In this document: positions 5,957-41,928 of the stretch, piece after piece | How positions within the stretch are numbered: the stretch's first letter is position 1 | How the letters are laid out: each line of letters starts with the position of its first letter | DNA from: Escherichia coli | Lineage (GTDB): Bacteria > Pseudomonadota > Gammaproteobacteria > Enterobacterales > Enterobacteriaceae | Assembly (NCBI RefSeq): GCF_030013595.1 | Contig: NZ_CP122768.1 | DNA length: 64,000 nt | Reading direction: 5' to 3' (one strand) | The notes under the pieces: generated by a model | Told to the model about the DNA's origin: nothing | What the model saw: the letters and a program-made list of their open reading frames with translations, nothing else | The model's database searches: none | Program-made: the position numbers and the translations under genes

Positions 5957-6820
5957 ATGAAACAACACCAATCGGCGGATAATTCTCAGGGCCAGCTTTA
6001 CATTGTACCGACGCCAATCGGCAATCTGGCGGATATCACCCAGCGTGCGTTGGAGGTATTACAGGCCGTTGATCTGATTGCCGCCGAGGATACGCGTCAC
6101 ACCGGTTTATTGCTGCAACATTTTGGGATTAATGCTCGGTTGTTTGCGCTGCACGACCATAACGAACAACAAAAAGCCGAAACGCTGCTGGCGAAGCTGC
6201 AAGAGGGGCAAAACATTGCGCTGGTTTCCGATGCCGGAACGCCTCTAATTAACGATCCTGGCTACCATCTGGTGCGTACCTGCCGTGAAGCGGGGATTCG
6301 CGTGGTGCCGCTACCCGGGCCGTGTGCTGCTATCACTGCGTTAAGCGCCGCGGGTTTACCATCCGATCGTTTTTGTTATGAAGGCTTTTTACCTGCCAAA
6401 TCAAAAGGCCGCCGTGATGCGCTAAAAGCCATTGAAGCGGAGCCGCGCACGCTGATTTTTTATGAATCTACCCACCGTCTGTTAGATAGCCTGGAAGATA
6501 TCGTAGCGGTATTAGGCGAATCCCGCTATGTCGTTCTGGCGCGTGAGCTGACCAAAACCTGGGAAACCATTCACGGCGCGCCCGTTGGCGAGCTGCTGGC
6601 GTGGGTCAAAGAAGATGAAAACCGTCGCAAAGGCGAAATGGTACTGATTGTCGAAGGCCATAAAGCACAGGAAGAAGACTTACCCGCTGATGCCCTGCGC
6701 ACGCTGGCGCTGTTGCAGGCAGAACTGCCACTGAAAAAAGCGGCGGCGCTGGCAGCAGAAATTCACGGCGTGAAGAAAAATGCGCTGTATAAGTATGCAC
6801 TGGAGCAGCAGGGAGAGTGA
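5957..6820 (+). CDS. rsmI: 16S rRNA 2'-O-ribose C1402 methyltransferase RsmI
   Basis: ORF 5957..6820 (287 aa); tetrapyrrole-methylase fold sequence; divergent from lpoA as in K-12. Confidence 0.9.
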
Positions 6821-6869
6821 TTACAGGCGTCGCAGCAGGAATAGCGTTGCAACGCCTGTAGCAGGCGAG

Positions 6870-7637
6870 TTAACGACGACACATCTCATCAATCATGCAT
6901 GTGAAATAGTTATGCAGCCATAAAAATGAAGCCGGGATAGCGGTAGAGACTTTAGCCGTGAGAAAACGTTCTGTCGCATCCTGCTTTCCTTCGCCAGTCA
7001 CCAGTAACAAAACTTCGCGGGCATTGAGAATATCCTTCAGGCCTAAGGTGATCCCACGAGTCACGGGACGGCCCGCGGTTTTTAACATCTCATGTTGCTG
7101 TGTTCTGGCATCAAGTTGACTGATATGGCAGGCCGGTTGCAGGTTTTCTCCCGGTTCGTTCAGCCCAAGATGACCGTTTTTCCCCAATCCGAGAACGCAT
7201 AAATCCAGACCGCCTTTGCGCGCAATCAGGTTCGTTACCCGTTCGCACTCTGTCTCATTTATCTCTTCGGAGCGAAAGCTGATGAGCTGGTCTTCACGTA
7301 GCCCCAGCGGCTGCACGATATGCTGTTGCAGGAAAGTTTCGCAGGTACCAGGCATCGTTAATGGCAGATCCACCCATTCGTCGAGCTTCACGAAGGTGAG
7401 CTGGCTGACATCAACCTGCTGCTGGTGGATTTTTTCTACCAGATAATGATACGTCAGTAATGGCGTGGCTCCGGTCGCCAGGCAAATCACGGCATCCGGT
7501 TTGCTACGGATCACGGCCAATAAATATTCGCTGGCACGTTCACTTAACGCCGTATAGTTTTCAACTTGTTGAAGGGTTTGCACAGGATGAAATTCCTTAA
7601 GTAAAGAGGCACCGCCAGACGCAGTGCCTCGTTCCAT
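6870..7637 (-). CDS. agaI: Galactosamine-6-phosphate deaminase/isomerase AgaI
   Basis: ORF 6870..7637; NagB-like glucosamine-6-P deaminase family; last gene of aga cluster. Confidence 0.8.
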   Translation of the reverse strand: MERGTASGGASLLKEFHPVQTLQQVENYTALSERASEYLLAVIRSKPDAVICLATGATPLLTYHYLVEKIHQQQVDVSQLTFVKLDEWVDLPLTMPGTCETFLQQHIVQPLGLREDQLISFRSEEINETECERVTNLIARKGGLDLCVLGLGKNGHLGLNEPGENLQPACHISQLDARTQQHEMLKTAGRPVTRGITLGLKDILNAREVLLLVTGEGKQDATERFLTAKVSTAIPASFLWLHNYFTCMIDEMCRR

Positions 7638-8429
7638 TTACAAAATGCCGAATGCGGAACAAACAATAGAGAGCACAAAAGTCACGCCGATTAACAGCAC
7701 CGGATGCGCTTTTTTCACCCGCAGGAAGTAATACATCAGCAGGGTGTAGGCCATCGGTAAAATATTCGGGAAGACTTTATCGAAGAAATCCTGCTGCAGC
7801 GCGACGCTGTGGGTACTGTCGATGGCAAACGATGTCACCACGTTAATATGCACATACGAAGCGATCAGTCCGCCGATTACCGTGATCCCGAGGATGGTTG
7901 CCGAACGAGCAATCATCTGCGAGTTCTCTCGCACTTTATCGATCGCCTTCACGCCGACTGAATAACCGACGTGGGTCCAGCCGACGCGCAGGAAGAAGAT
8001 AAGCAGGTAAACGGCGAAAAATAGAATCGGCCCCAGCAAGTTTCCCTGGCTGGCAAATGATGAGCAAATTCCCGCCATAATCGGCAATAAGGTAAACCAG
8101 AAAATCGCATCGCCAATCCCGGCGATTGGGCCAAACAGTGCCACTTTGAGGCCTTTAATGGTGTCGCGGTTTTCTCCTTTTTCTTCCATCGAAATTAATA
8201 ACCCCATCAGGAATCCGACCAGATTCGGGTGGGTATTAATAAATTCGAGGTTATCTTTCATCGCCGCGCTTAGGCCCGGTTTGTCGTCCTTATAAATCTT
8301 TTTCAGGATCGGCAACATCGCCCAGGTAAAACCGCCCGCCTGCATCCTTTCGTAGTTAAAGCTCGCTTGCAGCAGTGACGAACGAAAGCCCAGACGGGTG
8401 ATATCTTTTTTACTGATTTCAGATCCCAT
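7638..8429 (-). CDS. agaD: PTS galactosamine-specific EIID component AgaD (263 aa)
   Basis: ORF track 7638..8576; start trimmed to MGSEISKKDITRLGFRSSLLQASFNYERMQ (mannose-family IID signature); 11-nt overlap with agaC. Confidence 0.8.
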   Translation of the reverse strand: MGSEISKKDITRLGFRSSLLQASFNYERMQAGGFTWAMLPILKKIYKDDKPGLSAAMKDNLEFINTHPNLVGFLMGLLISMEEKGENRDTIKGLKVALFGPIAGIGDAIFWFTLLPIMAGICSSFASQGNLLGPILFFAVYLLIFFLRVGWTHVGYSVGVKAIDKVRENSQMIARSATILGITVIGGLIASYVHINVVTSFAIDSTHSVALQQDFFDKVFPNILPMAYTLLMYYFLRVKKAHPVLLIGVTFVLSIVCSAFGIL

Positions 8430-9222
8430 TGCTGTAGTCCTCTTCTTCATTTTTACTGGCAACGGGCTGCGGTTGCGCTTGCTGCCGGGATTTCGCATTG
8501 AAAAACTCATACACCGCAAAGCCTGCGCCCAGTACGGCAACCGGCAACAGGTTGCTGACCTGGATGTAGCAAACAAACAGGAAACCGGCGATCAGGTAAG
8601 GGATATATTGCGCTTTGAACATTACGCGCAGCAGCAAGCCAAAACCAACGGCAGGCAGAATACCGCCAGCCACTTCAAAGCCGTGGGTCAGCCAGGCGGG
8701 CATCGCTTTCACCAGCGCCTGCATCGCCCCTTGTGCCAGGTAAGTACAGAGGAAAGCAATCACCGCATACGCTGAAGCAACGATGAGCATCGTTGTCCAG
8801 TTAAGTCGGGAAAACGCTGCCGTATCCGCTTCTTTCGCGCATTTATCGGCTTTGGTCATAAATAATGAGAAAGCAGAATAGAAGAACAGAATGACATACT
8901 GCATTAACAAACTAAACGGCAGGCCAAGACCAATTGCTGTTTTGGCATCAACGCCCGTAGACCATGCAATGACGGTGGTCATCAGACCCGCCATAATCGG
9001 GTTGGGCGGCTGAACACCACCTGCAGGGGTTAATCCGGCGAAAGCCAACTCTGTCAGACCACCGGTAATTAAGCCAGTCTGAATATCACCGAGAATAGCG
9101 CCAGTTAGGGTACAAACGATTATCGGGCGGAATAAAAATAAGGCTTCCAGCCAAAAATCAATCCCCAGAACGAAAACTAACGCCGCCAGGGATAATCCCT
9201 GAAGTAGGGTTATTTCATGCAT
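8419..9222 (-). CDS. agaC: PTS galactosamine-specific EIIC component AgaC (267 aa)
   Basis: ORF 8419..9222; mannose-family IIC membrane protein. Confidence 0.85.
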   Translation of the reverse strand: MHEITLLQGLSLAALVFVLGIDFWLEALFLFRPIIVCTLTGAILGDIQTGLITGGLTELAFAGLTPAGGVQPPNPIMAGLMTTVIAWSTGVDAKTAIGLGLPFSLLMQYVILFFYSAFSLFMTKADKCAKEADTAAFSRLNWTTMLIVASAYAVIAFLCTYLAQGAMQALVKAMPAWLTHGFEVAGGILPAVGFGLLLRVMFKAQYIPYLIAGFLFVCYIQVSNLLPVAVLGAGFAVYEFFNAKSRQQAQPQPVASKNEEEDYSNGI

Positions 9223-9260
9223 TTTTATTACCTCAAACCAATATTAAGGCGATTTTAGAT

Positions 9261-9737
9261 TTAGTCAGGGATTTGTTCTTTTTGATCGCCAGGGACGTCC
9301 TGAATGAAAACATTCACGCCACGTTGTTTAATAAAACGTAAGTCCGTGAGATCCTGGTCATCGACATAAACTTTACTGCTGATTTGCTTTTTCCCTTCCG
9401 AGAAATGCATATTGCCGACGTTGACATCTTTCAGGTCAATGCCACCTTCTACCAATTTACGTACCGTTTGTGGCGTGCGGCAAATCAGGAAGATCTTCTG
9501 ATGCGGTGCAGCTTTGCCGATGACGTTAATGGTTTTTTCGATAGTAAAGAAACGAATGCCAAAGCCGTAGGTTTCCGCGGTAATACCCATTAATTTCTGT
9601 TGAATATCATCGTTAGCGACAACATCATCCACGACTACCAGCAGATTTGCACCGATGGTGGATGTCCAGGTCACGCCAACCTGACCGTGAACCAGACGGT
9701 TATCAATACGGGTTAAGAGAATATTTGGACTGCTCAT
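9261..9737 (-). CDS. agaB: PTS galactosamine-specific EIIB component AgaB (158 aa)
   Basis: ORF 9261..9737; mannose-family IIB with N-terminal LTRIDNRLVHGQV phospho-His motif. Confidence 0.85.
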   Translation of the reverse strand: MSSPNILLTRIDNRLVHGQVGVTWTSTIGANLLVVVDDVVANDDIQQKLMGITAETYGFGIRFFTIEKTINVIGKAAPHQKIFLICRTPQTVRKLVEGGIDLKDVNVGNMHFSEGKKQISSKVYVDDQDLTDLRFIKQRGVNVFIQDVPGDQKEQIPD

Positions 9738-9903
9738 TGTGTAATCCTCACCATAAAGTTGAATAATATAATTTTTTTAAATATATTATTGTTGCGGTAT
9801 TGTACTGATGTATTTATTAAGGTTTAGTTATCTCCTTTACCATTAAGGCACTCCCCGATATTAATCGGGAAGTACATTGGGATAAATCATAAAAAACTAA
9901 TGA

Positions 9904-10776
<873 letters not shown>

Positions 10777-11931
10777 TTATGCCTGCCACGGATGAATGAT
10801 TACGCCTTGCACCACGCGGTTAACGGTGCCGCTGGCTGATGGGGTATCCGGCGTATTGCCCATGTGCAGCGACTGCATCAGTGCAAACGTCTGGGCGTAC
10901 ATCAGGAAGCAAAATGCCTGCTCAACGTCGATAAAGTGACGGGACGGCGGCAGGATGATATGTGGACCGGCGGTAATAACGTCGTTGCTTTCCGCGGCGA
11001 TAGCGATTACGCGTATCGCCTGGTTATCGCGGCGAAGTTCAGCCAGCAGATCAAGATCATACTGACGGGTGTAAGGGTGGCTGGAGACAAATACCACCAC
11101 CAGCGTTTCGTTATCGACCAGCGATTTCGGGCCATGACGGAATCCGGTCGGGGAATCATAAAAGGCCGCCAGTTTACCCGCCGTCAGTTCCAGCACTTTC
11201 AGCGCCGACTCGCGTGCTGCGCCCTGTAAGCCACCGCTGCCGAGATAAACGATCCGTTTCCACGGTGCGTAACCAAACACACCTTCGCTGAAATCGCCCA
11301 GTGAGGTCAGGATCGCCTGGCAACGTTCCGCCACGTCGCGGAAGCTCTGGCTGTTGATCGTCTCAGGTGCGAAAACCGCGAGGCAGCTGGCCATCATGGT
11401 GGTAATGCTGCTGGTCATCGCAAAGCCGCGATCGTGCGTTTCTGCGGGCATCAGCAGGGCAAACGCGTTGTCGCTGTTGATCGCATTTTGGTAAAGAGCG
11501 CCCGCTTCGTTGCAGGTGATCGGCAGGTGATAGCACTCGGGTACAAATTGATTTGCCAGTTCCACGGCGGCGACGCTTTCCGGGCTGTTGCCGGATCGAC
11601 CGAAGGAGATCAACAGCAGTGGATGAGCTGGATTCAGGTAGTCCATCGGATTGGTGACCAGATCGGTGGTCGGTACGGCGCTGAAGTTTTTACCTGTATG
11701 GCTGGCGAGCCACGGCGCGATGATGTCACCGATAAATGCCGAGGTTCCGGCTCCGGTCAGGATTACCCGCAGATTCTCTTTGCGCAGTAACGGTTCAAGG
11801 AAGTTATTGAGCGCGGGACGTAGCGCGTCGATGTTGGTGAGTGAACGGATCCATGCGCGAGGCTGATGGCGGATCTCTTCTTCAGTCCATGTACCGGTTG
11901 CGGCAGCAGCAGGGGTGTAATTTTCTGGCAT
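10777..11931 (-). CDS. agaS: Galactosamine-6-phosphate deaminase/isomerase AgaS (SIS domains, 384 aa)
   Basis: ORF 10777..11931; tandem SIS domains. Confidence 0.9.
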   Translation of the reverse strand: MPENYTPAAAATGTWTEEEIRHQPRAWIRSLTNIDALRPALNNFLEPLLRKENLRVILTGAGTSAFIGDIIAPWLASHTGKNFSAVPTTDLVTNPMDYLNPAHPLLLISFGRSGNSPESVAAVELANQFVPECYHLPITCNEAGALYQNAINSDNAFALLMPAETHDRGFAMTSSITTMMASCLAVFAPETINSQSFRDVAERCQAILTSLGDFSEGVFGYAPWKRIVYLGSGGLQGAARESALKVLELTAGKLAAFYDSPTGFRHGPKSLVDNETLVVVFVSSHPYTRQYDLDLLAELRRDNQAIRVIAIAAESNDVITAGPHIILPPSRHFIDVEQAFCFLMYAQTFALMQSLHMGNTPDTPSASGTVNRVVQGVIIHPWQA

Positions 11932-12149
11932 AACTCAATCCTTAGTCTGATGAACTTGACGTCGGGCGTTGTCGCTTTCGCTTACCTTTCGTTTCATTTC
12001 ACTTGGTGATGTCTTTCGTTGATTAAAATCTATAGAAAAGAAACTGAAAGTTCAATGGAGAAAAAAGAAATAAAACGAAATTTGTGATCGTTGAAAGAAA
12101 AGACAAGGGAAGATTAAAGAATTGCATGATGACGTTGCTATGTGCACCG

Positions 12150-12220
12150 ATTGCCGGATGCGGCGTACCGTAGGTCGCATAAGACGCGTCAGCGTCGCAT
12201 CCGACACCGCTGCACAGATC
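12150..12220. repeat. REP/BIME palindromic units in agaS-agaA intergenic region
   Basis: gccggatgcggcgtaccgtaggtcgcataagacgcgtcagcgtcgcatccgacaccg matches the REP/PU consensus pattern. Confidence 0.55.
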
Positions 12221-12281
12221 AAAAAGAAAGAAAAAGAAAGGCCTTACGGGGGAAGTGAAGGCCCAATAAAGGAGCAAACCA

Positions 12282-13415
12282 TCAAAACGAAGCTAATTGA
12301 CCCTGAATCCAGATTTGTTGCACATGCAGCCCGCTATCCAGCGCAACGACGCTGGCGCGTTTGCCCGGTTTAAGCGATCCCAGAACATCATCAACACCCA
12401 GCATACGCGCCGGATGCAGCGACGCCATATGGATGGCTTCCGCAGGCGTTACGTCCGTCAACTCGACCATATTGCGCACTGCCGCATCAACAGACAGCGT
12501 ACTGCCCGCCAGTCCACCGGACGCGGTACGGACAACGCCACCGTGCATCTGCACTTCTTCGCCACATAACGTATAGCGACCATCCGGCATCCCGGCTGCC
12601 TGCATCGCGTCGGTGATCAGCACGATTCTCTCTTTCGCACAGCAACAACACAGCGACATCGCCGCCGGATGCACATGATGACCATCGGCTATCAGTTCCA
12701 GCCAGGCGCGCTTGTCCGTTAATCCCGCGCCAACCATTCCCGGTTCGCGGTGATGTAAACCTGTCATCCCGTTATAGCAATGCACCAGGCCGTCGGCACC
12801 AGCGTCAAACGCGGCACGGGTTTGTTGCCAGGTCGCCGCGCTATGCCCCAGTATCACCCGTACGTTTTGCTGTTTAAGATGGCGGATGGCCTGCAATGCC
12901 CCTTCTTTTTCCGGTGCCAGCGCTACCACGCGCAAGGTGTGCTGAGAAACGGCAATCAATTGATCCAGCTCGGCAATTTCCAGCTCGCGAAACAGCTCCG
13001 GCGGATGCGCGCCTTTATTCTGCGGCGTGAAGTACGGTCCTTCGAGATAACTCCCCAGCACTTGCGCACCAGGTCCGCCGCGTTGGCAACGTTGAGCAAT
13101 ACGTTTCAGCGCCGCATGAATGGTATTAAGCGGCGCGGTTACGGTGGTCGGTAACCAACTGCCGACACCTTCGCGTGCTTTGTGCATTGCCAGCTTGTCG
13201 AGCACATCCGGCGCGTCATCCATTACATCAACGCCCGCACCACCATGTACATGGGTGTCGATGTAAGCGGGGCAGAGCAGTTCCGCATCGCGTTCAGTCA
13301 CGCCCACTGGAATCGGTTCGATTGCTGAGATTACACCGTCAGCAATACGCAACTGATGGTCATCGAGCCATCCCTCTTCAGTCAGCAGCCTTCTGGCGCG
13401 CAGAACGTGTGTCAT
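12282..13415 (-). CDS. agaA: N-acetylgalactosamine-6-phosphate deacetylase AgaA, full length (377 aa)
   Basis: ORF track 12282..13436; start trimmed to MTHVLRARRLL; NagA-like amidohydrolase with metal-binding His motifs; full length here, unlike the truncated K-12 allele. Confidence 0.85.
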   Translation of the reverse strand: MTHVLRARRLLTEEGWLDDHQLRIADGVISAIEPIPVGVTERDAELLCPAYIDTHVHGGAGVDVMDDAPDVLDKLAMHKAREGVGSWLPTTVTAPLNTIHAALKRIAQRCQRGGPGAQVLGSYLEGPYFTPQNKGAHPPELFRELEIAELDQLIAVSQHTLRVVALAPEKEGALQAIRHLKQQNVRVILGHSAATWQQTRAAFDAGADGLVHCYNGMTGLHHREPGMVGAGLTDKRAWLELIADGHHVHPAAMSLCCCCAKERIVLITDAMQAAGMPDGRYTLCGEEVQMHGGVVRTASGGLAGSTLSVDAAVRNMVELTDVTPAEAIHMASLHPARMLGVDDVLGSLKPGKRASVVALDSGLHVQQIWIQGQLASF

Positions 13416-13846
13416 ATTCCTTCCTCGACCGGACATTCTTCATGGCAGCGGCCTAACTCGTCCACCAAACTGGTCAGCCCACGGTGTCCACACTCCAGCG
13501 CCTGCACACGGAACTCTTCACCGCTTAACCCTTCGCGCTCCAGCACCATCTCCAGTAGCAGTTGCAAATTGGTGCCGGTGATCACTTCACAGCCCGGTTT
13601 TTGCATCGCCAGCGTTGAAGCTACGCGAAACGGCGTGCCGCCCAGCAAATCCGTCAGAAAAACAATGCCGTCTTCACAATCGAGTTGGGCGATGGCCTCT
13701 TCAAGCTGCGATGTAAGCTGCGCGGTGCTTGAGGTTTCGGGAAAATCGATGGCAATAAACTGCGATTGCTCGCCGAGGATTTGCTTCATTGCTTTTTCCA
13801 TGCCACTGGCAAATCCGCCATGCCCTGTCAAAATAATACTTAACAT
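13412..13846 (-). CDS. agaF: PTS EIIA component AgaF (144 aa)
   Basis: ORF 13412..13846; mannose-family IIA sequence MLSIILTGHGGFASG; ATGA overlap with agaA start. Confidence 0.8.
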   Translation of the reverse strand: MLSIILTGHGGFASGMEKAMKQILGEQSQFIAIDFPETSSTAQLTSQLEEAIAQLDCEDGIVFLTDLLGGTPFRVASTLAMQKPGCEVITGTNLQLLLEMVLEREGLSGEEFRVQALECGHRGLTSLVDELGRCHEECPVEEGI

Positions 13847-13863
13847 CTAATACCTCATTGTAT

Positions 13864-14742
13864 TTAAAGGAAATGACAGAATTTACCGACGATGCCGAGT
13901 ACCACGGTAACTGCAATCAGGCGCAGCGGACTCCAGCCGCGGCGTACCAGCCAGAACATGGTCAGGGTGTAGACCAGCGGTAAGAAGGCAGGCATCAGTT
14001 TGTCGATAACATCAGCCTGTAACTTAACCACTGCGTCGCCAGCGGTGATTTCCAGCGTGGTGCTTAAACGAACATAGGTTGCCACCAGCGCGCCGATTAC
14101 CGTCATCCCAACGATTGACGCAGCATGGCCGACTTTTTTGGTATTCGCTTTAATGAGTGGAATCGCCGCCACGCCCATGCGGTAAGCATAATGCGCCAGA
14201 CCAAAACGCAGCCCCAGGTGTACCACGTTGAACAGAACAATAAATACGACTGCGCCAAGAATGGAGCCTTGTAATGCCAGACTGGCACCAATCCCGCCAC
14301 AAATCGGCAGTAGCGTTAGCCAGAACATCGCATCGCCAATCCCGCCAAGCGGCGCACCGACGGCAATTTTGGTGCTCTGAATACTGTTAACGTCCTGCTT
14401 AGAACGCTCCATCGCAAGGATAATGCCGATAACAAACGTCACCAGAAACGGATGGGTATTGAAGAAACCCATATGCCCCTTCATGGCGCGCGCCAGGTCG
14501 CGTTTATTAGTGTGGATCTTTTTCAGAGCAGGCAGCAGACCGTACAACCAGCCGGAAGCCTGCATACGTTCGTAGTTAAAAGACGCTTGTAACAGCATGG
14601 AACGCCAGGCGACGCGGTTGATATCTTTTTTTGTCAGCTCCGCGCCAATACTCTGATCTTCATACACGTTTTCATTGACGCCTGTCAGCAGTGTTTCTTC
14701 GTTTTCACTGACGTTCGGCAGGGTGGTTTGATTAGATGCCAT
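13864..14742 (-). CDS. agaE: PTS N-acetylgalactosamine-specific EIID component AgaE
   Basis: ORF 13864..14748; paralogous to AgaD (shared FNYERMQA motif). Confidence 0.8.
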   Translation of the reverse strand: MASNQTTLPNVSENEETLLTGVNENVYEDQSIGAELTKKDINRVAWRSMLLQASFNYERMQASGWLYGLLPALKKIHTNKRDLARAMKGHMGFFNTHPFLVTFVIGIILAMERSKQDVNSIQSTKIAVGAPLGGIGDAMFWLTLLPICGGIGASLALQGSILGAVVFIVLFNVVHLGLRFGLAHYAYRMGVAAIPLIKANTKKVGHAASIVGMTVIGALVATYVRLSTTLEITAGDAVVKLQADVIDKLMPAFLPLVYTLTMFWLVRRGWSPLRLIAVTVVLGIVGKFCHFL

Positions 14743-15511
14743 CTTCAAATTCCTCTTTCTGTGCCGCAGGTTGAGTCGGTTCAGGAGATTTACGCAGCAG
14801 GTCGATCAGCGCCATCGCCAGCGCGGCGGCAGCAATAGCCAGCACCGGTAACTTGAGCCAGGCTGCGGCAACAAAGCCCAGGATGAAGTAGGGGATGTAG
14901 ACGTTTTTCATCATGATTTTCAGCAGCACGGCAAAACCGATTGCTGGCATGATGCCGCCCGCGACGCCGAGGCCGTCGATTAATCGTTGCGGCAGGACAT
15001 CAATGATGGTTTTGGCATGTTCTGCGCCGAAGTAGATAGGCAGGAAAGCGCAGAGAAAATAGAAAGTGCCGAGTGCCAACAGTGCCAGATAGTTCACGCG
15101 TTCAATGCCGCGTGTATCGGCGTTCTCCGCCATCCGGTCGCAGCGGGACATTACGCCAGACATCACCGAGAACAGGAAGGTAATCCCCATCTGTACTGCG
15201 ACAGCGAAAGGTACGGCGACACCGACCGCGACATCGGGTTTCACGCCAGTAGTAATGGCAAACGCCGTGCCGACGATAGTACCGATAATCACGTTAGGCG
15301 GCTGTGCGCCCGCCAGCGGGGCCAGCCCCATCCACACCAGTTCCAGCGTACCGCCGGTTAAAATACCGGTATGCAGATCGCCAAGTACCAGCCCGACTAA
15401 CGGGCCGAGGACCACCGGGCGGTGCATATGGGTTAAGCCGTTAAACATATCCAGGCCAGCGATAAAGGCGATAATGCCCAACGCGAATGCCTGCAACAGA
15501 CTGATTTCCAT
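14732..15511 (-). CDS. agaW: PTS N-acetylgalactosamine-specific EIIC component AgaW, full length (259 aa)
   Basis: ORF 14732..15511; paralogous to AgaC. Confidence 0.8.
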   Translation of the reverse strand: MEISLLQAFALGIIAFIAGLDMFNGLTHMHRPVVLGPLVGLVLGDLHTGILTGGTLELVWMGLAPLAGAQPPNVIIGTIVGTAFAITTGVKPDVAVGVAVPFAVAVQMGITFLFSVMSGVMSRCDRMAENADTRGIERVNYLALLALGTFYFLCAFLPIYFGAEHAKTIIDVLPQRLIDGLGVAGGIMPAIGFAVLLKIMMKNVYIPYFILGFVAAAWLKLPVLAIAAAALAMALIDLLRKSPEPTQPAAQKEEFEDGI

Positions 15512-15521
15512 GATGAATCCC

Positions 15522-15995
15522 TCAAAGTAATTTAAAGAGGTCCACAGCAGGCTCTGTCGGGACGCCCTGAACGAAGCATTCCACCCCAGCGGCTTTCAGG
15601 TCGTTAAATGCTGCGATATCGCCCGCATCCACAGAAACCGTTTTGGCGATTTGTTGCTTGCCATTGGCGTAGTGCATATTGCCAACGTTAATGCGATTCA
15701 CCGGAACGCCACCTTTCACCAGCGTCAGGAAATCGGCAGGTGTTTTACAAACCAGCAGGATTTTCTGTCGATCGGCGGCGCGATGAATGTTGTCGATGAC
15801 TTTTTGCAGCGTCCAGAAACGTACGGCGATCCCTTCTGCCAGTACCATTTCCATCAGGTTTTGTTGTACCGGATCTTCGGCAACCTCATCGTTGGCTACC
15901 AGCACCAGATTTGCCCCCGCAAATCCGACCCACTGAACGCCGACCTGACCGTGAATCAAGCGTTCATCAATCCGGCTTAAAACAATATTTGGCAT
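15522..15995 (-). CDS. agaV: PTS N-acetylgalactosamine-specific EIIB component AgaV (157 aa)
   Basis: ORF track 15522..16031; start trimmed to MPNIVLSRIDERLIHGQ; paralogous to AgaB. Confidence 0.8.
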   Translation of the reverse strand: MPNIVLSRIDERLIHGQVGVQWVGFAGANLVLVANDEVAEDPVQQNLMEMVLAEGIAVRFWTLQKVIDNIHRAADRQKILLVCKTPADFLTLVKGGVPVNRINVGNMHYANGKQQIAKTVSVDAGDIAAFNDLKAAGVECFVQGVPTEPAVDLFKLL

Positions 15996-16017
15996 AGCGT
16001 GTTCCTCTTTGTTTTGC

Positions 16018-17298
16018 TTATTGGCCTTCACAGGCTGTGTGGTACTGCGCCAGGATGTCCTGAATATGGTTGATAATGAGTTCCCGTGGCGTCGGTTGCA
16101 GCTCGCCGGAGCGAACTTTCACGTACTGCAGCGGCAGATACTGACTGATCAGCGGTAGCGGAATTGGTGAATCCGCCAGATTACGAACCAGATGAGCGAA
16201 AGCGTCATCAATCTGGCTGTCTGGCCAGTAATAGCGCACGCGATCTGAGTAGCTATAACCACGCGCCAGACGACGCGCGTTGCCGTCACCGTGGTAGTGG
16301 CTTTGCCAGTATTCCGGGCGGTCGAGCATCACGTTTTCCAGCACCTGACGCAGACCAGAACAGGCTTTTGCTGGCACCAGTTCTTCTTCAATCGCTGCCA
16401 GAGAGAACAGAGCTTCACGCAGGGCGAAGGTCAGCGCCGGGCCAACTTTCAGAATGGCAAAGTGGTCAATCACCAGCTGGCGCAGCGATTGCGGCGTTTG
16501 ATAATCGGTAGAGTGCGCTTCGAAAATCAGCGTTTCGTAGTTTTCGACCATCTGGCTTAAGGCGGTCGCTTTAGCTGGCTGATAATCAATAACGTTGGTG
16601 TGATCGAATTCGACGCCGGGTTGTACCACCAGAGCAATGATGCGTGGCCAGATGGCACTCAGACCTTGCTTTTCAAAGGCGTGACGATGGGCTTCCAGCG
16701 TGGCACGGGCGGCATCCGGCGTGGTGACCGCCAGCTCGCTTAAGGTTTCATGCGCGCCGCCAGGTACCGGTACTTCGGTCCCAATGACATACACGAGATC
16801 GGCTTCGCCAAAGTGTTCACGACAGGTTTCTTCCGCCACTTTCGCCAGACGTGCGGCGCGTTCAGCCACGATGTCATCAGTTAAGGGAACCGGATCGTCC
16901 TGACAGGACATGCTGCAATCAAGGTGAATTTTTTTGAATCCTGCCGCCACGTAGCTTTTAATCAAATCATCGGCATTGGCCATTGCCTGAGCGGCAGGCA
17001 GGCTTTGCCAGCGGTTTGGACCCAGATGGTCGCCACCCAGAATCAACGCATCCTGTGGGAAATTCAACGAGTCGGCGAGCTGACAAACAAAGCCGCGAAA
17101 ATCGGCGGGCGTCATTCCGGTATAACCGCCGAACTGGTCCACCTGATTGGAGGTTGCTTCAATCAGTAACGGCGTTTGGTTTGCACTGGCGTAGCGGATT
17201 GCAGCTTCCAGCACCAGCGGATGTGCGGAACAAACGGCATAAATCCCATTTGTTTTGCCCTCTTTGTGCTGTCTCACCATTTCTGTCAGATGTTTCAC
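16018..17298 (-). CDS. kbaZ: Tagatose-bisphosphate aldolase non-catalytic subunit KbaZ (426 aa)
   Basis: ORF 16018..17298; GatZ/KbaZ family sequence. Confidence 0.9.
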
Positions 17299-17546
17299 TT
17301 TCCTCTCCAGTTCAGATTACTGCGATATTAATCTTTCGTTTTGTTTCAGTTGATACTGCGCCATGGTGAGATAAAAATAAAACGAAAGATAATAGTTTTC
17401 TGATCTGATTCACAAAAGAAACATAATGAAAGCCACTGAAACGAGAGTAGCTTGCGCCAATGGGTAAGGTGGGCTTGCATTTGCTTAATAGAAAGGCGTT
17501 AATAGGCAAAACGAAATGAAACGAAAGTTTTACGAAAGGACTTACT
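17299..17546. promoter_or_regulatory. Divergent kbaZ / agaR control region (AgaR operator and promoter region expected)
   Basis: AT-rich 248-bp spacer between divergent kbaZ (-) and agaR (+); individual sites not mapped. Confidence 0.45.
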
Positions 17547-18356
17547 ATGAGTAATACCGACGCTTCAGGTGAGAAGCGAATGACAGGCACCAGCGAGCGA
17601 CGAGAACAGATCATTCAGCGTCTGCGACAGCAAGGGAGTGTGCAGGTTAACGATCTGTCGGCATTGTATGGCGTATCTACTGTGACGATCCGCAACGATC
17701 TGGCGTTTCTGGAAAAGCAGGGGATCGCTGTGCGTGCCTATGGCGGCGCGTTGATCTGCGATAGCACCACGCCGTCAGTCGAGCCATCAGTGGAAGATAA
17801 AAGCGCGCTGAACACCGCGATGAAACGCAGCGTTGCGAAAGCTGCCGTTGAGTTGATTCAGCCAGGTCATCGGGTGATCCTCGATTCCGGGACCACCACT
17901 TTTGAGATTGCTCGTCTGATGCGCAAGCACACTGACGTAATTGCGATGACCAACGGTATGAACGTGGCTAATGCGTTGCTGGAAGCGGAAGGCGTTGAGC
18001 TGCTGATGACCGGCGGGCATTTGCGCCGTCAGTCGCAATCTTTTTACGGCGATCAAGCTGAACAATCGCTGCAAAATTACCACTTCGATATGCTGTTTCT
18101 TGGTGTAGATGCGATCGATCTGGAGCGCGGCGTCAGCACACATAATGAAGATGAAGCCCGTTTAAACCGCCGGATGTGCGAAGTTGCGGAACGGATCATC
18201 GTGGTCACCGATTCCAGTAAATTCAATCGTTCCAGTTTACATAAGATCATTGATACTCAACGTATCGACATGATCATTGTTGATGAAGGCATTCCTGCGG
18301 ATAGCCTGGAAGGGCTGCGAAAGGCTGGGGTTGAAGTGATTCTGGTCGGGGAGTGA
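17547..18356 (+). CDS. agaR: DeoR-family repressor of the aga regulon AgaR (269 aa)
   Basis: ORF 17547..18356; N-terminal HTH ([19 protein letters not shown]) and DeoR C-terminal sensor domain. Confidence 0.9.
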
Positions 18357-25619: not shown

Positions 25620-25996
<377 letters not shown>

Positions 25997-40363: not shown

Positions 40364-40444
40364 ACGCCAGGTTTTGGGTAACGTGCCGGATGCGATGCTG
40401 GCTGAACTGCACCCCAAATGTTGGACATAATCTGACATCTGAAG

Positions 40445-40975
40445 GTGCAGTTTATGAAACATTCATTTGAAGTAAAACTTGCCGCTGTAAATCATTACCT
40501 GGCTGGTCATGCAGGCATCATTTCTACGGCAAAACTCTTTCAACTTTCTCACACCAGCCTCTCACACTGGATTAATCTTTTTCTTCTTCACGGTCCTCGT
40601 GCACTGGATTGCAGACACAAGCGTAGCTATTCTCCTGAAGATAAACTTTGCGTGGTTCTTTATGCTCTCGGGCATTCTGAGTCTCTACCCCGGGTAGCTG
40701 CCCGGTTTAACATTCCCAGCCACAACACGGTTAAAAACTGGATAAAAGGCTACCGCAAATCTGGTAATGAGGCCTTTATCAGGCGCAGGAAGGAGAAAAG
40801 CATGACCCGTTCTGATGATACCCATGAAAACGAGGCAAACATGACGCCGGAAGAGATGAAGAATGAGCTGCGTTATCTTCGCGCAGAAAATGCATATCTG
40901 AAAGCCATGCAGGAGCATCTCCTGGAAAAAAAGCGCCAGGAGCTGGAGAAAAAACGAAAGTCATCCGGAGCCTGA
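40445..40975 (+). CDS. IS3-family transposase OrfA (HTH, leucine-zipper region; 176 aa)
   Basis: ORF 40445..40975; in-frame A_AAA_AAG slippery heptamer at 40927-40933 near the 3' end. Confidence 0.85.
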   Translation: MQFMKHSFEVKLAAVNHYLAGHAGIISTAKLFQLSHTSLSHWINLFLLHGPRALDCRHKRSYSPEDKLCVVLYALGHSESLPRVAARFNIPSHNTVKNWIKGYRKSGNEAFIRRRKEKSMTRSDDTHENEANMTPEEMKNELRYLRAENAYLKAMQEHLLEKKRQELEKKRKSSGA

Positions 40976-41079
40976 GGTGCGGACACTGCCAGTCTGACCT
41001 GTTAAAGGCTGCAGGGCTGGCCAGAAGCACGCTGTACTACCAGCTGTCACTGCAGAAGGCTAAGGACAAGTATGCTGAT

Positions 41080-41928
<849 letters not shown>

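Follow-up and report, generated by a model that had tools for sequence, protein, structure and literature searches.

The rsmI-agaI junction of an Escherichia coli genome: probably a long-standing yra-less haplotype of a variable chromosomal slot

Introduction

In the stretch of Escherichia coli DNA described here (64,000 bp of contig NZ_CP122768.1, called the window in what follows), the genes rsmI and agaI face each other across a short spacer, at a place where the gene order of K-12 has the four-gene chaperone-usher fimbrial operon yraHIJK. The question raised by this locus is whether the operon has been deleted from the strain or whether the site is an old, unoccupied one. A preliminary description of the window left both alternatives standing, an ancestral empty site and a clean deletion of about 4.5 kb, and it took the absence of the operon to change the adhesin repertoire of the strain.

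The passages on yra in several papers provide the background against which the locus can be viewed. The operon was acquired by the E/B1/A lineage according to the reconstruction given in one of them (PMC6896753), YraJ occurs unevenly among the lineages of E. coli (passage on usher distribution in PMC5717340), and yra transcripts are exclusive to A/B1 among urinary isolates (transcript passage in PMC4128348). The fimbria is described as cryptic where it is mentioned in two of these sources (PMC4128348, PMC6896753), and the porcine ExPEC strain PCN033 is listed without Yra in the relevant part of PMC4578781.

The convergent gene pair

The two genes that converge on the spacer (Table 1) were found at the places, in the orientations and with the identities that had been proposed for them. 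RsmI matches its NCBIfam model over the full length at 629 bits (cut-off 502) and AgaI matches at 472 bits (cut-off 271), and both gene names agree with the RefSeq annotation of a stretch that is 100% identical. Beyond agaI, the NCBIfam models identify agaD, agaC, agaB, kbaY and agaS. LpoA gave no NCBIfam match and is named from the RefSeq annotation of a near-identical genome, in which the annotated aga/gam cluster is complete and ends with agaI.

Table 1. Features of the rsmI-agaI junction, in window coordinates
Feature	Position	Strand	Size	Remark
rsmI, 16S rRNA (cytidine1402-2'-O)-methyltransferase	5957..6820	+	287 aa	NCBIfam NF011570
Haplotype-specific segment	6814..6913		~100 bp	K-12 has yraK-J-I-H and the yraH upstream region there
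Spacer between the convergent stop codons	6821..6869		49 bp	single-copy per genome
Imperfect palindrome	6822..6860		15-bp stem, 9-nt loop	6822-6836 pairs with 6846-6860
agaI, galactosamine-6-phosphate isomerase	6870..7637	-	255 aa	NCBIfam NF007291

The C-termini of both proteins are typical of the unoccupied haplotype, as the form of the locus that has no operon between the two genes will be called. RsmI of the window ends in EQQGE, and its K-12 counterpart, which has 286 residues, ends in EQQG. AgaI of the window ends in WLHNYFTCMIDEMCRR; the K-12 protein has 251 residues and ends in WLHSNFICLINT (its last residues being SNFICLINT). In the preceding 242 residues the two AgaI proteins differ by three further substitutions only.

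The aga/gam cluster to which agaI belongs was observed to be complete in the window (7638-18356), with the order agaR, kbaZ, agaV, agaW, agaE, agaF, nagA/agaA, agaS, kbaY, agaB, agaC, agaD and agaI; these names are taken from the annotation of a genome that is 99.95% identical. A second AgaE-like match, found by tblastn, lies at 13888-14649. The aga cluster of K-12 is truncated, unlike the complete cluster of the window.

Comparison with the K-12 locus

The annotated K-12 chromosome has the order rsmI, yraK, yraJ, yraI, yraH, agaI, just as had been stated when the window was first described. The gap between rsmI and agaI measures 5,449 bp there and the DNA that is specific to K-12 5,484 bp (L001 8858-14341), which makes the earlier estimate of about 4.5 kb too low. 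When the two loci are anchored on the start codons of rsmI and agaI, near-perfect identity to K-12 extends through window position 6813 and begins again at position 6914, and the flanks up to these breakpoints are about 97-99% identical at the nucleotide level. The 5,484 bp of K-12 are thus replaced by only 100 bp in the window.

The difference between the two loci is not limited to the spacer. It reaches into the 3' end of each gene, where it takes in the final codon or codons of rsmI and, in agaI, about the last 13. Positions 6814-6887 have no counterpart in K-12. The remaining part, 6888-6913, consists of agaI codons which the alignment of the agaI tails shows to be homologous to those of K-12 and strongly diverged from them. 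The GC content of the yra segment is 45.1%, as against 53.6% and 49.8% in its two flanks and 50.8% over the whole window.

Short direct repeats at the junction had been suggested as a possible sign of deletion. A search for shared k-mers between the two boundary zones of the K-12 yra segment found no repeats, either direct or inverted, that reach 7 bp. No remnant of the 100-bp segment of the window was found within the 5.5-kb segment of K-12, the best local score being 24, as compared with a mean of 21.7 and a maximum of 29 for shuffled sequences. The K-12 proteins YraH, YraI, YraJ and YraK have no tblastn match at E <= 1e-10 anywhere in the 64-kb window, and the reported absence of the operon between rsmI and agaI is confirmed. 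No IS element is seen in the sequence at the window junction. Since the window has 100 bp of its own and boundary repeats are lacking, a simple deletion in a K-12-like locus cannot have given rise to it.

Distribution of the two states in E. coli

A set of 5,426 complete E. coli genomes was examined. A junction query of 146 bp was matched in 1,869 of them (34%) at 91-100% identity, and at least 80% of its length is present in 1,821 of these 1,869 genomes; rsmI and agaI are contiguous as in the window in 1,835 genomes of the set. The query finds a median of one place and at most two places per genome. The K-12 yra segment was matched in 3,523 of the 5,426 genomes and is nearly complete in 3,264. 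The junction and yra counts add up to 5,392, leaving about 34 genomes with other arrangements. As the junction query matches only 1,869 genomes, the yra-positive genomes do not carry a copy of the junction as well. In a sample of 40 yra matches, evenly drawn and obtained with a query that contains the last bases of rsmI and agaI, one or both of these genes lie under the match in all cases except one, which is an IS1-truncated remnant beside agaI.

The carriers of the junction include an ST38 strain, JJ2434 (which we take to be ST131), E2348/69 and UPEC 26-1. The carriers of yra include K-12, O157:H7, an O6:H16 strain and LY180. The former presumably belong to phylogroups D and B2, and the latter to A, B1 and E. 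When the window was aligned with E. albertii, Escherichia sp. E1V33, strain E69 and six strains of E. coli, the spacer was 49 bp long in every case, the QQGE end of RsmI and the EMCRR end of AgaI being common to them, and the junction of the window is base for base the same as that of many independent complete genomes.

YraJ and UshC are mutually exclusive according to the passage on their distribution in PMC5717340. The idea that this exclusivity reflects allelism at the agaI-rsmI slot was considered, and it was rejected for E2348/69, in which the slot is unoccupied.

The slot in other species and its rare states

A scan of species-representative genomes with AgaI gave six loci, which were typed by tblastn; none of these six was identified as E. 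fergusonii, E. marmotae or E. ruysiae. The slot is unoccupied in E. albertii, in Escherichia sp. E1V33 and in strain E69, all of which have the spacer of 49 bp, an RsmI that ends in QQGE and an AgaI that ends in DEMCRR. It is also unoccupied in Trabulsiella odontotermitis, where agaI adjoins rsmI across a different spacer. In the remaining two loci the slot is filled. E. whittamii has yraHIJK, with 83-90% amino-acid identity to K-12, and Escherichia sp. MOD1-EC7003 has a divergent four-gene yra-like operon in the same slot, with 53-65% amino-acid identity (L007 10778-16167). A version of this yra-like operon that is 80% identical occupies the same slot in 2 of the 5,426 E. coli genomes.

The occupied haplotypes of K-12, E. 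whittamii, MOD1-EC7003 and E. coli 18KM2445 have one AT-rich type of agaI tail in common, and the alignment of the tails places all unoccupied Escherichia haplotypes in another single type. The common tail types within the occupied group and within the unoccupied group point to two old classes of allele. The K-12 RsmI end (QQG, with GGGTAA as the end of the gene) is the same as that of Trabulsiella and not the same as that of the unoccupied Escherichia alleles.

Several individual loci deserve description. The spacer of Trabulsiella odontotermitis (L008 10706-10807) apparently contains two inverted REP-like palindromes in a BIME-like arrangement, which replace the hairpin of Escherichia. In E. 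coli 18KM2445 a divergent four-gene yra-like chaperone-usher operon lies in the agaI-rsmI slot (L018 1900-7975), and about 1 kb of unannotated DNA separates agaI from the first fimbrial gene. E. coli O145 RM10425-C1 (L015 9865-15000) has kept an rsmI end of the window type, and its agaBCDI genes are replaced by genes for an MBL-fold hydrolase, a LysR regulator and a PTS IIB fragment, followed by a MalY/PatB-family gene and a malX-like PTS gene. With this cassette, the variable slot takes on yet another state.

In E. coli EC25 (L016 4891-5970) a deletion bounded by IS1 joins a truncated gene for an aromatic amino-acid transporter to the spacer between yraH and agaI. The deletion removes rsmI, lpoA, yra and many neighboring genes, and it leaves an agaI of the K-12 type. 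The query with rsmI and agaI matched one place in the EC25 genome, and rsmI was not found elsewhere in it. In several other genomes yra carries IS1 or IS3 insertions or is partially truncated. The genuine yra deletions in these genomes are associated with IS elements and retain the gene ends of K-12. The window bears no resemblance to such IS-linked secondary losses.

The hairpin in the spacer

The spacer contains a stem-loop that stands 1-10 nt past both stop codons. The two arms that had been pointed out earlier, acaggcgt (6823-6830) and acgcctgt (6852-6859), are at the positions given for them, and the stem extends beyond these arms to 15 pairs, including one mismatch and one G-U. The calculated folding energy is -24.3 kcal/mol (z = -3.3) for the + strand and -23.9 kcal/mol (z = -4.4) for the - strand, and not one of 200 shuffled sequences folded as stably.

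A consensus scan of positions 6600-7100 found no canonical terminator or promoter, and a search of the same interval against Rfam 15 gave no match at E <= 1. No T-run is found 3' of the stem on either strand, where the + strand continues with GCAGGCGAG and the - strand with AAUCACUCU, and it is this lack of a U-tract in both directions that makes the hairpin fail the terminator scan. A dispersed repeat of the REP or MITE kind was considered as a candidate and rejected because the element is single-copy, with a median of one place per genome. The sequence of the hairpin also appears to be unrelated to the REP consensus.

The hairpin is kept in all 10 aligned alleles, and 89.6% of the cells are paired in the 9 distinct ones. 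One pair only has undergone a compensatory change, from G-C to A-U in strain E69, and 1-3 pairs are broken in several E. coli alleles, among them those of E2348/69, UPEC 26-1 and RMDEC465. The covariation is not above that of shuffled controls, as the observed score was reached by 59 of 500 shuffles, and it thus does not demonstrate structural selection on the hairpin. The hairpin may plausibly be a non-canonical bidirectional terminator lacking a U-tract, or a stem that would protect the 3' ends of both transcripts.

Origin of the yra-less allele

Combining these comparisons, we consider it highly probable that the window carries a long-standing yra-less haplotype of the agaI-rsmI slot and that the K-12-type occupied haplotype is an alternative allele, most likely an acquired one. 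The unoccupied site is probably old and ancestral. Of the two alternatives given in the preliminary description, the empty and probably ancestral site is supported by its occurrence in 1,869 genomes, in E. albertii and in two more Escherichia lineages. The clean deletion is contradicted by the 100 bp that the window has of its own and by the lack of repeats.

The unoccupied class is more likely to be the ancestral one because the slot is unoccupied in Trabulsiella and E. albertii, because the GC content of the cassette is lower, and because the reconstruction in the pertinent passage of PMC6896753 is one of gain. The occupied allele would then have arisen by the gain of a fimbrial cassette of lower GC content, which homologous recombination within conserved portions of the two flanking genes would subsequently have carried from lineage to lineage. 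Such an exchange would explain why the 3' ends of agaI and rsmI are specific to each class. The sharp return to E. coli identity at the breakpoints, together with the haplotype-specific ends, fits the movement of a cassette by recombination in its flanks. Gain of yra, rather than its ancient loss, appears to be the direction of the change, and recombinational exchange would be the mode of its spread. In the unoccupied allele, two convergent transcription units are parted by the 49-bp spacer only, and the strong hairpin would probably serve both transcripts.

The same alleles might have arisen in the opposite direction. A yra-type operon would then have been present in the slot of the Escherichia ancestor, and a single old event, either a deletion or a replacement, would have produced the unoccupied allele, to be inherited or spread by recombination since then in E. 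albertii, some other lineages of Escherichia and about a third of E. coli. The slots of E. whittamii and MOD1-EC7003 are occupied, with cassettes that are deeply diverged (53-65% amino-acid identity), and the occupied state is therefore old too. The occupied haplotypes, furthermore, have their agaI-side junction in common, and the K-12 RsmI end equals that of Trabulsiella, which makes the evidence from the rsmI junction on the direction of the change mixed. The age of the occupied class and the Trabulsiella-like end of K-12 rsmI are the reasons for which an ancient loss is still given some weight. It is nevertheless improbable in view of the unoccupied slots of Trabulsiella and E. albertii, the lower GC content of the cassette and the absence of any cassette remnant from the unoccupied allele, and the published reconstruction, in the part that concerns yra, favors gain in the E/B1/A lineage (PMC6896753). 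A recent event in the strain or its clone, in which yraHIJK would have been cleanly deleted from a K-12-like locus, for example by way of short direct repeats, has nothing in its favor beyond the absence of the operon and is extremely improbable. It is effectively refuted by the 100 bp that are foreign to K-12 and include different agaI and rsmI 3' ends, by the lack of repeats at the junction, by the recurrence of the identical junction across 1,869 complete genomes and further Escherichia species, and by the IS-linked nature and K-12-type ends of the genuine deletions. Even less credence can be given to an artefact of assembly in which the operon was collapsed or dropped. There are signs of a minor sequence error elsewhere in the window (rnpB, with G6 instead of G7), but the same junction is found, base for base, in many independent complete genomes, and the flanking genes are both intact and of full length.

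The reading of the window as an old yra-less haplotype can be extended, tentatively, to the genus as a whole. The slot would then be a trans-species polymorphism with at least three old classes (unoccupied, yraHIJK and the divergent yra-like operon), which would be exchanged as whole cassettes through homologous recombination in the flanking genes, possibly under selection acting on the adhesin repertoire, with agaI tails specific to each class and with a functional bidirectional hairpin at the 3' ends. This extended form of the proposal is rather unlikely to be correct.

Other features of the window

The closest genome in the database is HCP5S3_I2, which is 99.95% identical over 40 kb and differs in its IS elements. 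An IS3-family element (IS1397 in the annotation of a related genome) is present at 40383-41859 of the window, and HCP5S3_I2 has it at the same place in the opposite orientation. At about 45127 of the window, HCP5S3_I2 has an IS200/IS605 tnpA between yhaH and yqjG (L017 45131-45836), which is absent from the window. As this insertion is missing, the window comes from a close relative of HCP5S3_I2 and represents a distinct genome.

The rnpB gene of the window has a run of 6 G at about 25724-25729, as compared with 7 in the closest genome. The window version of rnpB is matched at 99% or more in 69 of 5,425 E. coli genomes. The difference in the G-run is probably not biological and would stem from an error in sequencing the homopolymer.

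Significance and comparison with known systems

The absence of yraHIJK from the window matters little in itself. It groups the strain with the yra-negative E. coli, alongside the ST38 strain, E2348/69 and JJ2434, and it removes one cryptic fimbria from the predicted adhesin set of the strain. The earlier statement that the adhesin repertoire is changed is therefore true in a trivial sense, but the strain belongs to a large Yra-negative part of the species, the fimbria has been described as cryptic, and its absence is typical of the lineage. It should not be taken as a strain-specific loss or as an event relevant to virulence. The value added by the analysis is modest and consists of the exact breakpoints within both 3' ends and of the several states of the slot. 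The locus could offer a simple marker of lineages, or illustrate on a small scale how cassettes are exchanged via flanking homology.

The hairpin of the spacer can be compared with two known kinds of element. It resembles Rho-independent bidirectional terminators in being a strong GC-rich stem-loop close after convergent stop codons, and it differs from them in having no U-tract on either strand and no significant covariation. The K-12 locus is unlike the window in this respect, because rsmI is followed there, as far as can be read by eye from the sequence, by a canonical-looking hairpin and then by the T-run TCTTCTTTT. Like REP and BIME elements, the hairpin is a palindrome that lies outside the genes, next to the 3' ends of a convergent pair, and could plausibly protect the 3' ends of mRNA; it differs from these elements in being single-copy per genome.

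The locus as a whole has the same flanking genes as the agaI-yraHIJK-rsmI locus of the K-12 MG1655 type. The latter differs by its four fimbrial genes on 5,484 bp of 45% GC, by its AgaI of 251 residues and by its RsmI of 286 residues. The passages of the cited papers that deal with yra do not contain the breakpoints inside the agaI and rsmI 3' ends, the spacer held in common with E. albertii or the third and fourth states, both rare, that the slot can take. The yra-less state is already known as far as gene content is concerned, and it is an ordinary lineage polymorphism. The window represents the yra-negative state of the presence/absence polymorphism of yraHIJK, the operon of the Yra fimbria (gamma-1 chaperone-usher fimbriae), between the same flanking genes. 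Its junction is the same as that of the E2348/69, ST38 and JJ2434 genomes, and it differs in nothing essential from the polymorphism that has been published.
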